IMG/VR virus record: IMGVR_UViG_2721755660_000001
Strand: one strand, 5' to 3'
Source: a virus
Lineage: Duplodnaviria > Heunggongvirae > Uroviricota > Caudoviricetes
Length of the DNA: 64,000 nt
Part shown: piece after piece, positions 27,001 through 30,000 of the stretch
Layout: each line of letters begins with the position of its first letter
Numbering within the stretch: the first letter of the stretch is position 1
Made by a program: the position numbers

Positions 27001-30000
27001 TAGACATTTACGTATTAAATATATATAAAACAGCATTAAAATTTTTACGGATGGAAAATAATGCGGAAGATTTTGTCTTGGATCGGAGGGCTCATCGCAA
27101 TAACGTCGGGAGTGGTTACGCTTGTTGCTTTCTTTCTTCCACAGTACGTACCCGAGCAAACCAGATTAGCCATTGGGCGCTTTCTTGAGTTTATGAAGGT
27201 AAACCCATATGGCACTCTTATTACGATTGTGTGCTTAGTACTTTTAGCTGTAGTTTGGATGTTAAGCAGTAAAGTGATTGAGCTTACTAAAGGAACCAAG
27301 CTATTCGCCATGTGCGGATTGTACTGGAGCAAAGACAATCAGCCTTTTTGCCCAAAGTGTAAAGAACCAGCTTCAGTGCATGACGATGATGAGTCTTATC
27401 GCTGTAATTCATGCGGAAGAATTATTTTTCCCAGTTTCGAGTCTAAACAAATATCCATCACGAAAGCTCTGCAAATAGTAAATTCAAAAAGAGGTCGCTA
27501 AGGCGGCCTTTTTTTTTGCCAAAAACTCATCAATGAGGACCCAGCATGAAACGCAACCGCGTTAACGTGCTGACCGTCGTCAACTCCGCTTCAAACATCA
27601 CCACCGAAACCATCGACGGCAAGCCACATATCGTGGTTCGCGGCATCACGCCTGTCGTGGACGATATCGTGATGAACCGGAAGTTGTACCCGGCAGCAGA
27701 AATCGAAAAGGCCTACAACACGCTTGAGCGTAACCCGATGCCGCTGGGCCATCCGAAAGTGGACGGCAAGCATGTTTCGGCGCGCGATGTCCGGGCGGTG
27801 AATGAATACCACGTCGGCGCCTGGCTTCAGAACGTCAGCCACAAAGACGGGAAGGTGACGGGCGACATGTACGTTAACCGCCAGTACGCCGAGTCGAGCG
27901 ACAAGGGCAAACTCCTCATCAACCGCCTGGATGAGATGCTGGCCGGTACCAACTCCGACCCTATCCACATTTCCACCGGCCTGCTGTATTCCGGCATTGC
28001 CGCCAACGGCGAATCGAAGGGCAAGAAGTACAACGAGATCGCCACGAACATGATGTTTGACCATGTGGCGGTGCTGCTTGATGAGCCTGGTGCAGGTACG
28101 CCGGAGGAGGGCGTTGGCATCTTTGTTAACTCAGAAGGTGATGAGCAACAGATTGAAGTTGCCCGCCTTACTGATGGTATCGACTGTACCCGCGATGGCC
28201 TGCTCAACAAAACCAAATTCTTCTTCACCAATGCCTCCAACTTCTCTTTCGACGACATCTCCCGCGCTATCAGCGACAAGCTGCGCGAGGGGGACGCCGA
28301 AGATAAGTGGCTTTGGCCTGAAACGGTGTGGCCGGACAGCTTCATCTACCGCAATGACACCAAATACCTGAAACAGAAGTACCTCATCGATGATGACGGC
28401 AAGGCCGTGCTCGTCGGCGAACCTGTAGAAGTCGTGCGCAAACCCACTGAGTACGAGATTAAAACCAACGGAGAGAACGATCCGATGAAAGAACTGATTA
28501 TCAATGCGCTGCAAGCCGCTGGTAAGCCGACTGAAGGCAAGTCCGACGCCGAGCTGATGGACGCATACAACCAGATGGCCGCCGAAAAGGCAGCGAAAAC
28601 AGAAACGCCTGAAGAAAAGGCCGCCCGCGAGAAGAAAGAAGCGGACGACAAGAAGTCGAAAGAGCAGGCCAACAACAACGAAGAAATGCCCGGTTGGGCT
28701 AAGTTGCTGAGTGAGCAAGTTACCGCCATTAACAGCCAGCTCAATGCCAACTCTGACAAAGAGAAAGGCGAAAAGCGTGCTGCAGTCAAAGCCAAGTTTC
28801 TGCTCGACGACATCGCTGTTAACGCACTCGATGGCGCTGCACTCGATGGTCTTTATGCGCAGTGCCAGACCTCTGTCGGCCTGAATGGTGCATTCCGCCA
28901 GGTCAATTCCTCTCAATCAGTCAGCGAAATGCCGGAGTAAAAAATGGCTAAAGATGGAAAGCATATCATTCACGCTGGTGGCGTGTTCCCTAATCCGCTG
29001 CTTAACCGTGAAGGCGCAGCTGCGGCATCCACTCCACCAGGCACAATTGGCTTCTTCAGCTCGGCGGATAAGTTTACCGCTTCGGTAGCAGGTAATGAGG
29101 CTGCAATCCTTTATGTTGCAAACAAAGATTACCTGCGCTGCTTGTCAGTTGATGACGCTATCCCTGCGGGTGAGTTGGTGGTGGGTATTCAACCGCTGCC
29201 TGGCATGTTCTTAAACGTACGTGCGGCCGCTGGCACCTACACCAAGGGGCAAGCCCTATCTATTGCAAACGGCCGAGTCAAAGTGGCTGCTGGCGACGAG
29301 TCAGTGCGCTGCTACGTCGAGGAAGACAAATCATACACAACGGCAGCAGGCGATCTGCTTCGTGTCGTAATCAAGTAAGGGGCAGATATGTTTGTATTCT
29401 CCAAGTCTATCGGTGAAAAGACCGGTAACCTCGCGGTTAACCAGGCGCAATGGCGCGCCCTTGAAGTTGAGCGAAACGCCAGCGCACAGGCTGCGGCTGA
29501 TTTTCTGGCGCGCACTCAGTTCCGTGGCGATGCAGAAAATGCTCCTTATCTCGACGCTGTGAACGCAGTTGACGATATCCGTCGCCTGTATCGCGCTTTC
29601 GACACAACTGTGCTTCAGCAGTTCGAGCCGAATACCGAGTTCACTCTGTTGAACGATTTGATGCCGCTTTCTCGCTCCGTGCGAATAGAGCAGTCTCGTT
29701 ACGATTATGCTCGTACCGGCGGTCGCGGCTGGGCTCATACGTCCATGTCCGGCCAGGTCGGTGCGGCGCTGGATGCTCGCAGCTATTCCTTCGATGGCAC
29801 TATGGTGCCTATCCACGACTCGGGCTTTAAGTTCGAATGGCGTGATCCAATCTTCAATAGCCCGCAGGCATTGCAGTCGCAGTCGGATGCGCAGCGTGGA
29901 TCCGTTGAAGACGTTCAGCGTCGTTACGTTGATTACATTTTCAACGGCTTCCGTGACAAAGCTGGCAACTTCGCAGTCTTCGATGGCCTTACCTGGAAAG

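Follow-up and report, generated by a model that had tools for sequence, protein, structure and literature searches.

A gene for a predicted membrane zinc-ribbon protein is a rare occupant of a cargo slot between two head genes of a lambdoid prophage

We analysed a stretch of 64,000 nucleotides of a virus of the class Caudoviricetes (IMG/VR record IMGVR_UViG_2721755660_000001), called the window below, and specifically an open reading frame (ORF) of 146 amino acids (aa) which stands between two genes of its head module. This ORF is a true gene whose protein is under selection. It occurs as rare cargo in a hypervariable hotspot and is not a head component, and it sits on a self-contained, horizontally mobile accessory cassette. 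The gene is a phage moron in the sense of Hendrix and Juhala, showing three of the four defining features: its presence varies, its composition is atypical and a terminator goes with it. The protein is predicted to be an inner-membrane hairpin with a cytoplasmic zinc ribbon and, judging from sequence comparison, it would form an undescribed protein family together with around 50 distant relatives. Regarding its function, we infer, with a probability of roughly 45%, a membrane-tethered sensor and effector in the conflict with superinfecting phages.

The slot is delimited by the following features of the window:

26020-27003, + strand: Mu-F-like head morphogenesis (minor head) gene, the left flank (Phage_Mu_F E=3.2e-10; phrog_758 E=2e-133)
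27004-27517, + strand: AT-rich cassette made of promoter-like region, ribosome-binding site, coding sequence and terminator (GC drop; absent in empty-slot relatives)
27518-27545, + strand: right border of the slot, including the ribosome-binding site GAGGA of the DUF2213 gene (conserved in all slot types)
27546-28940, + strand: DUF2213 head gene, the right flank (Pfam DUF2213; phrog_760 E=3e-200; RefSeq)

The left-flank gene is labelled 'phage minor head protein' in RefSeq, and the DUF2213/phrog_760 protein has a weak similarity to a head maturation protease. The insert is AT-rich, as the original prediction had it: the GC content is 0.40-0.43 over positions 26900-27600 versus 0.55-0.62 in the flanks, and the 146-aa gene has a GC content of 0.42 overall and of 0.43 at third codon positions (GC3). 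It was also right that the insert interrupts an otherwise contiguous head block, because in a relative with an empty slot (L036) the flanking genes are 24 bp apart, and these 24 bp hold only the ribosome-binding site of the DUF2213 gene. The right border is kept in the empty slot too.

The slot was surveyed with the DUF2213 gene as the anchor, a relative of which is found in 515 viral contigs, and the best 80 of these 515 were taken. The survey comprised 92 loci (viral, E. coli and phage loci) in which both flanks were identifiable, 77 viral loci being the unbiased subset. Over the 92 loci, the Mu-F stop and the DUF2213 start were 24 to 1304 bp apart, and the slot ORFs fell into 42 clusters, five or six of them being spurious antisense frames and more than 30 being cargo of unrelated types. 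Only one of the 77 viral loci had the 146-aa gene, 6 had no cargo ORF and the rest had more than 30 different cargo combinations. Since the gene is present at a single locus and the slot is empty or differently filled elsewhere, we consider it cargo; the comparison with related prophages thus agrees with the earlier view of an insertion and not of a conserved core gene of the head module. Among 5426 complete E. coli genomes, the flanks were matched in 23 and the insert was 100% identical in 3. The alternative cargo in E. coli consists of a Lit-family exclusion protease, a 215-aa hypothetical protein together with a Rap1a/Tai immunity protein, and other hypothetical proteins. The Lit cargo of locus L113 was identified by PADLOC (E = 8.2e-42) and by Pfam (Peptidase_U49), and an HNH_3 homing endonuclease is another cargo of the slot. 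Searches with tblastn found no homologue of the 146-aa protein in 50,697 isolated phage records or in 72,556 plasmid records, and no member of the close family was found among 185,579 species-representative genomes.

The gene itself is defined by two features:

27050-27055, + strand: Shine-Dalgarno-like GGATGG, 5 nt 5' of the ATG (read from the sequence)
27061-27501, + strand: coding sequence (CDS) of 146 aa with an ATG start (ORF reading, ratio of nonsynonymous to synonymous substitution rates (dN/dS), five close full-length clusters, AlphaFold2 (AF2) model)

The ORF had been predicted with exactly these coordinates and this length, and GGATGG is kept in every head-slot copy of the gene. Nevertheless, the annotation pipeline of RefSeq (PGAP) places no CDS at all on the 542-bp interval 27004-27545 in the three complete E. 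coli genomes which have the insert (NZ_CP013663, NZ_CP067426 and NZ_AP042695), and therefore the coding status of the ORF was put to the test. The blank interval, as well as an open frame of some length antisense to the ORF, would be expected if the ORF were a chance frame within AT-rich non-coding filler and no gene existed. The evolutionary evidence leads us to reject this explanation, to which we give hardly any probability. By the Nei-Gojobori method, dN/dS was 0.146 between the window copy and a copy with 80% identity (dS 0.75), and 0.145 between the latter and a copy with 58% identity (dS around 2.2), so the ratio stays at 0.14-0.15 with synonymous change near saturation. When the protein was divided into halves, the zinc-ribbon half (0.10) was more constrained than the membrane half (0.18). 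In a collection of 5.8 billion proteins the relatives at 58-94% identity form five clusters, all of them full length, and the full length is retained down to 58% identity in two different genomic contexts. Furthermore, the pattern of Cys, Trp and Gly is invariant among 51 relatives, and the confidence of the AF2 model (predicted local distance difference test, pLDDT) rises from 60 to 88 once the family alignment is given. The antisense frame was ruled out as a coding alternative, because the selection and the conserved Cys/Trp pattern belong to the sense frame. Finally, the exact protein is found in GenBank as 'hypothetical protein', 358 contigs carry it, and some RefSeq records of relatives also list a hypothetical protein. 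Its cluster mates come from E. coli, Klebsiella aerogenes, Citrobacter freundii, C. braakii and Atlantibacter hermannii. The RefSeq gap is an annotation omission, and the gene is unnamed but not unknown.

Regarding the protein, four parts were delimited:

27073-27138, + strand: transmembrane (TM) helix 1, residues ~5-26 (Kyte-Doolittle hydropathy; AF2 helix 2-25)
27208-27276, + strand: TM helix 2, residues ~50-72, with an invariant NPYG just before it (hydropathy; AF2 helix 49-76; alignment)
27304-27435, + strand: zinc-ribbon domain, residues 82-125 (invariant residues, AF2 strands, sub-threshold Pfam matches)
27457-27492, + strand: C-terminal helix, residues 133-144, with the conserved motif IS(I/L)xEA (AF2; family consensus)

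Both the two TM helices and the CPKC...CNSCG ribbon had been read correctly from the sequence: hydropathy and AF2 agree on the former, and the motifs of the latter lie at C97-C100 and C115-C118-G, with cysteines that are invariant or nearly so in the 51 relatives. The zinc-ribbon region consists, in this order, of a GLYW beta-hairpin, the knuckle CPKC (97-100), an acidic loop HDDDE and the knuckle CNSC-G (115-119). W89, C97, C115 and C118 are invariant in the 51 relatives and G86 and C100 nearly so, C100 being kept in at least 90% of the sequences; two hydrophobic segments were found in 40 of the 51. With the 51-sequence alignment, AF2 reached a mean pLDDT of 88.3, with around 95 over residues 80-140 and likewise for the strands around both CxxC knuckles, whereas the model was poor (59.7) when only 6 close sequences were given. 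The model has helices at 2-25, 32-47 (amphipathic) and 49-76, short strands at both knuckles and a helix at 133-144. Lysine plus arginine across the relatives came to 2.35 in the N-terminal tail and 3.52 after TM helix 2, versus 1.43 in the loop, and a Cys4 site requires a reducing compartment. This enrichment and this requirement point to a cytoplasmic zinc ribbon and to a hairpin with both ends inside. Thus, the 146-aa protein is predicted to be an inner-membrane hairpin with both termini in the cytoplasm and a short periplasmic amphipathic helix joining the TM helices, and its C-terminal half, of roughly 60 residues, is predicted to be a cytoplasmic C4 zinc ribbon followed by a helix.

The zinc ribbon is predicted from the hallmark of this fold, two CxxC knuckles on beta-hairpins, which is present and conserved in the homologues. 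The generic C4 ribbons (TFIIB/TFS/RPC10, ribosomal eL43/S27, PriA CRR and the Cys4 insert of DpnI) share this hallmark, but the matches to them are weak and under the curated thresholds, and they are devoid of the GxYW hairpin, the C-terminal helix and the 2-TM anchor. No curated zinc-ribbon family scored above its gathering cutoff (the best was Zn_ribbon_NUD, 18.1 bits versus 24.8), and all 14 Pfam matches of the protein were under their own cutoffs. The domain and fold searches found no enzymatic or DNA-binding domain other than the minimal zinc ribbon. With PADLOC v2.0.0 the best matches of the protein, HEC-08 (E=0.01) and a 2TM effector (E=0.057), were short and non-significant, and no PADLOC defence family was common to the 51 relatives. 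Two candidates were discarded: a DpnI match of two family members in the domain scan, in which only the Cys4 insert of DpnI was aligned, and a weak NCBIfam match that would make TM helix 1 a cleavable signal peptide or a lipoprotein signal, since the hydrophobic stretch has around 22 residues and there is no lipobox cysteine.

The cassette has a candidate promoter at one end and a terminator at the other:

27001-27029, + strand: promoter-like TAGACA-N17-TATAAA, a cassette-specific candidate (10 of 12 positions of the sigma-70 consensus)
27487-27517, + strand: intrinsic terminator (stem 27487-27498 / 27503-27514, GC core GGTCGC/GCGGCC, followed by a T9 run)

The promoter-like -35 hexamer begins with the TAG stop codon of the Mu-F gene (27001-27003). 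The motif is unique in the 64-kb window, where 0.01 occurrences are expected by chance; it was present, as TAGACA-N17-TATAAR, in 12 of the 12 copies of the cassette examined, and of the 77 loci none had it but the locus of the 146-aa gene. A distant copy of the gene, L004, keeps both hexamers and the 17-nt spacing with a fully diverged spacer sequence. A second candidate -10 hexamer, TAAAAT (27037-42), is mostly conserved. A scan for consensus promoters and terminators called neither element at the 146-aa gene. The promoter-like motif was rejected by the scanner because the final T of the -10 hexamer is missing, and the hairpin was missed because a flanking pair of an A-run and a T-run extends the stem and consumes the T-tail.

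The original prediction gave the gene its own terminator with the stop codon in the loop. The second part stands: the hairpin at 27487-27514 has a 12-bp stem (-18.3 kcal/mol, z = -3.96 against shuffles) and a 4-nt loop, UAAG (27499-27502), which holds the TAA stop, and the ORF enters the stem, so that its last residues G-R and the stop codon are encoded by the hairpin. However, the terminator is a feature of the slot and is not private to the 146-aa gene. Of the 77 related loci, 46 had the hairpin motif, together with more than 20 types of unrelated cargo, and none of the 6 empty slots had it. Its distance to the DUF2213 ATG is constant at 37 nt (34 nt for the window copy). The GGTCGC/GCGGCC hairpin and its T-run are also found in the Klebsiella phage ST101-KPC2phi6.1, whose slot has an unrelated 74-aa ORF, and within the ENT1 gap. 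Different stems stand in the same place in other loci, namely CCCAGC/GCTGGG in L074 and CCCGC/GCGGG after Lit, and ATTGCCTGAAATCCACCAATGAGGAC comes next in each of them; in the 83% variant (L013 and L014) the hairpin is lost. Terminators which accompany varied cargo and are missing from empty slots suggest a functional requirement of the cargo and a shared right border of the slot. The Rfam matches over 27382-27525 were all sub-threshold (Atu_C8 with 25 bits versus 50, Thr_leader with 20 versus 55) and are almost certainly chance matches to the hairpin and U-run.

Several other occupants of the slot were seen. The commonest cargo, cluster C0 (L117:926-1438 and around 14 other loci), encodes proteins of 113-172 aa which have a TM segment at the N-terminus and match nothing in Pfam or PADLOC, and is another uncharacterised candidate. 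A 60-aa ORF (MSGVYFESKR...) lies directly 5' of the DUF2213 gene at L018:5623-5805, at L116:1445-1627 and in L110, sometimes after another cargo gene and terminator; it is under-counted, because a longer antisense frame displaced it in the clustering. L018 is a case of stacked cargo, where the 146-aa gene and terminator are followed by this 60-aa ORF ahead of DUF2213. In E. coli A14 (L115:1-73), the gene in the portal position 5' of Mu-F is annotated as a truncated 'anti-CBASS protein Acb1 family protein' pseudogene.

The mobility of the cassette is best seen in the copy with 58% identity (P0005, locus L004). This copy (L004:2215-2900) has ERF/SSB genes on one side and a Dam methylase gene on the other, with an integrase nearby and no head module, and it is likewise lower in GC content than its surroundings. 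Its 5' flank aligns with around 130 nt of the 3'-end of the Mu-F gene, and its 3' flank still has the terminator and a degenerate version of the ribosome-binding site and first codons of DUF2213, ATGAAGCGTAAC versus ATGAAACGCAAC. These relics of both head genes around the copy indicate that the cassette left the head slot and entered an early region. The relics of the neighbours have decayed, and the ORF is still intact under purifying selection. L004 is an unusually clear record of the relocation of a moron between phage modules.

For more distant relatives, a HMMER profile was run exhaustively against 1.84 billion representative proteins, and 53 proteins were returned at E <= 1e-3, with only the 58% copy below 1e-10. 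The others have 113-226 aa and the same layout as the 146-aa protein, that is, hydrophobic segments and then the ribbon, and the family consensus reads K-x-G-(V/I/L)-Y-W-D-K-x-x-N-P-x-C-P-x-C-K-x-P ... C-x-x-C ... G-x-x-I-(S/T)-L-x-E-A. The signature of the putative family would be the 2-TM hairpin, G-x-Y-W, C-P-x-C, C-x-x-C and the C-terminal helix. The family is spread over Proteobacteria, Bacteroidota, Acidobacteriota and Nitrospirota; among species-representative genomes, the hosts of the motif-rich sub-family are Thermomonas, Gallionellaceae, Holophagaceae, Flavobacterium, Pseudomonas, Methylotenera, Methylomonas, Nitrospirota and Methylococcales.

Regarding the genomic contexts, the Pseudomonas relative is inside a classic integron cassette array, with eleven attC-type repeats of ~79 nt in 6 kb, one for each small ORF. 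We looked for attC sites as RYYYAAC...GTTRRRY with paired arms, a test with a background of 14 in 900 random windows. Of the 9 distant loci, at least 3 (Thermomonas, Gallionellaceae and Pseudomonas; L024, L025 and L028) had an attC whose start coincides with the stop codon, and the test was negative for the window copy and for L004, L005 and L116. Other relatives stand near restriction- or defence-type genes. The relative in L011 comes after an operon of GmrSD_N, AAA_15-21-DUF3696 and a 299-aa protein (L011:4574-8338), and this operon is within an integrase-bounded island which also carries a Y1 transposase and Fic. In L031, a locus unrelated to L011, the relative is directly 3' of a GmrSD_N (DUF262) gene with an ISL3 transposase nearby (L031:6624-8336), and one further distant relative has SIR2_2 and transposases in its vicinity. 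The family also has a highly divergent member in the Mu-F/DUF2213 slot itself, a 127-aa hypothetical protein of E. coli 23CRST004 (L116:1001-1384), which matches the family profile with an hhalign probability of 97.9% (E = 3.9e-13) and is found in 1 of the 5426 complete E. coli genomes and in 55 contigs. It follows that the family has occupied this slot at least twice, or for a long time. As at least three of the nine distant copies are single-ORF integron cassettes, the family protein would be autonomous, and the safe conclusion from these contexts is that the family acts as one autonomous gene which travels on gene-shuffling platforms.

The lysogen-expressed exclusion factor or toxin of the original prediction, and more broadly a role in the conflict with superinfecting phages, is plausible by context, because Lit occupies the same slot, because relatives are found in integrons or beside GmrSD- and SIR2-type genes, and because of the promoter-like motif. 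The gene would work as follows. In the lysogen, the cassette would be transcribed from its own weak sigma-70-type promoter, and the terminator would halt this transcript and leave the head genes silent; during lytic growth, the Q-antiterminated late transcription would run through the cassette. The protein would act alone. At the inner face of the membrane its zinc ribbon may sense a component of the superinfecting phage (the incoming DNA, an ejected protein or an assembly protein), and the TM hairpin would then either block the entry of the genome (superinfection exclusion) or oligomerise and permeabilise the membrane (abortive infection). A wider proposal is more tentative, namely that the undescribed family consists of stand-alone membrane zinc-ribbon anti-phage proteins, with the ribbon as the sensor and the hairpin as the effector, which shuttle among prophage hotspots, integron arrays and integrase- or transposase-bounded defence islands.

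Several points weigh against the conflict role. With Pfam, PHROG, PADLOC and NCBIfam, neither the 146-aa protein nor its 51 relatives had a match at threshold, and the fold search gave generic zinc-ribbon matches and nothing else significant. The association of the family with defence genes is suggestive and concerns few loci, and several of the distant members have housekeeping genes or small unannotated ORFs as neighbours. Integron cassettes have many functions besides defence, and the slot also hosts non-defence cargo such as Rap1a, an immunity protein of the type VI secretion system (T6SS). Furthermore, the promoter-like motif has a -10 hexamer which departs from the canonical form, and no promoter was called by the consensus scanner, so that expression in the lysogen is putative.

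Alternatively, the gene may be a helper of the carrier phage in its lytic cycle, expressed mainly late by Q-antiterminated read-through, which might exclude a secondary infection of the infected cell, adjust the timing of lysis or anchor a step of assembly or packaging to the membrane. The gene is co-oriented with the late operon and embedded in it, 3' of Q and the lysis cassette, no canonical promoter was detected, and late read-through would express the gene whatever the terminator does. Nevertheless, the gene is dispensable for this type of phage, being absent in 76 of the 77 relatives, 6 of which are without any cargo; one copy is in an early region, the distant relatives are integron cassettes or genes of chromosomal islands with no phage around, and the phage has a separate, complete lysis cassette. 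The cassette-specific motif together with the terminator favours independent transcription, so that we regard a lytic helper as distinctly unlikely. Not quite as improbable, but still unlikely in our view, is a cargo gene for the physiology of the host, that is, a membrane-tethered zinc-ribbon regulator or adaptor which alters the envelope, stress or competition phenotypes of the lysogen. The models for this type of cargo are lambda bor, lom and the T6SS immunity genes, and it would fit with the Rap1a gene in the same slot, with the many adaptive functions carried by integron cassettes and with the fact that no defence family matches the 146-aa protein. It fits less well with a protein that has no enzymatic or DNA-binding domain past its minimal zinc ribbon, with the restriction- or defence-type genes that recur beside distant members, and with a spread over four phyla, which is not what would be expected from the partner of a host-specific pathway.

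A selfish membrane toxin or addiction element, persisting by post-segregational or similar effects, has a slim chance. A small 2-TM hairpin encoded by a single mobile gene with a patchy distribution could be such an element, and the weak PADLOC likeness to 2TM effectors mentioned above (not significant) goes in the same direction. However, we found no antitoxin partner and no conserved antisense feature (Rfam below threshold), the exact protein is stably carried in its 358 contigs, and the purifying selection is strongest on the soluble zinc-ribbon half and not on the hairpin, which points to the recognition of a specific ligand. The sensor and effector against superinfecting phages is the reading that we prefer, and it can be compared with several known systems.

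HK97 gp15 is also an extra gene between genes that are adjacent in relatives, AT-rich, with a downstream terminator and a candidate promoter, and it encodes a small inner-membrane protein within the structural-gene operon of a lambdoid prophage. By its description it is set apart from the 146-aa gene, as it lies in the tail region. HK97 gp15 has one TM segment and is not known to carry a zinc ribbon. As cited in PMC10884400 (Juhala et al. 2000; Cumby et al. 2012), it is a moron-encoded exclusion protein whose exclusion was demonstrated experimentally; for the 146-aa protein we infer the role. Lit is found in the exact same Mu-F/DUF2213 slot, followed by a hairpin, a T-run and the same right border, but it is a metalloprotease of 284-291 aa, and the 146-aa protein has no protease motif and no PADLOC match to Lit. 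Rip1 (ring interacting pore 1; Patel et al. 2026; PDB 9oox) is described in PMC13434031 as a small prophage moron between terminase genes. Rip1 resembles the 146-aa protein as single-gene cargo in the packaging/head module whose N-terminal part acts on the membrane and whose C-terminal part is a sensor, and it may serve as a model for sensing late phage ring proteins and opening the membrane; no sequence or fold homology to Rip1 (PDB 9oox) was found in the 146-aa protein. Tab, the tail assembly blocker of the Pseudomonas phage JBD26, has 83 aa, is encoded between terminase genes and acts on tail assembly (PMC10884400). The likeness, by description, is that of a small late-operon moron with no recognisable domain, and Tab defends from the prophage state. 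Finally, TM helices are present in around one third of the integron cassettes with a validated defence activity, among them Deva, which interferes with the injection of the genome (10.1101/2024.07.02.601719). These cassettes (BRiCs) are, by description, single small autonomous ORFs, like the attC-flanked distant relatives of the 146-aa protein, whereas the window copy is not flanked by attC.

The carrier of the gene is a lambdoid prophage of E. coli, integrated at tRNA-Arg, beside yfdC. The Q antiterminator gene (18927-19616) and the complete lysis cassette (20487-21867) are both ahead of the late operon, and therefore late transcription should pass the terminator. The head block continues 5' of the Mu-F gene with the portal gene (24612-26072), and 3' of DUF2213 with a head decoration gene and a DUF6260 major capsid gene. 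Other features of the window were also observed. A second cargo region, with the tail fibre genes on one side and the integrase on the other (43002-47292), has two acyltransferases, a HipA-domain fragment and an IS3 element, and resembles a disrupted accessory or serotype-conversion module. In the early region, an MT-A70 methyltransferase gene (4018-4677, - strand) carries an internal stop and has a pseudogene annotation. A small CxxC zinc-binding protein of the ECs_2282 family is encoded at 8725-8904 (+ strand), and a homologue of the DNA polymerase III theta subunit at 16139-16387 (+ strand).

A moron in the late operon of a prophage is a well-known phenomenon; the protein family is what is undescribed. 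At ~440 bp, the gene is a compact candidate for a single-gene defence assay. The group of prophages with the Mu-F/DUF2213 slot is widespread in enterobacteria, as the DUF2213 anchor alone is found in the 515 viral contigs mentioned above. The slot is delimited and hypervariable, has a fixed right border and hosts at least one validated defence gene, Lit, and therefore it is a promising place to mine genes of phage conflict. Furthermore, the presence of one unnamed family in prophage hotspots and in integron cassettes links two platforms of gene exchange.

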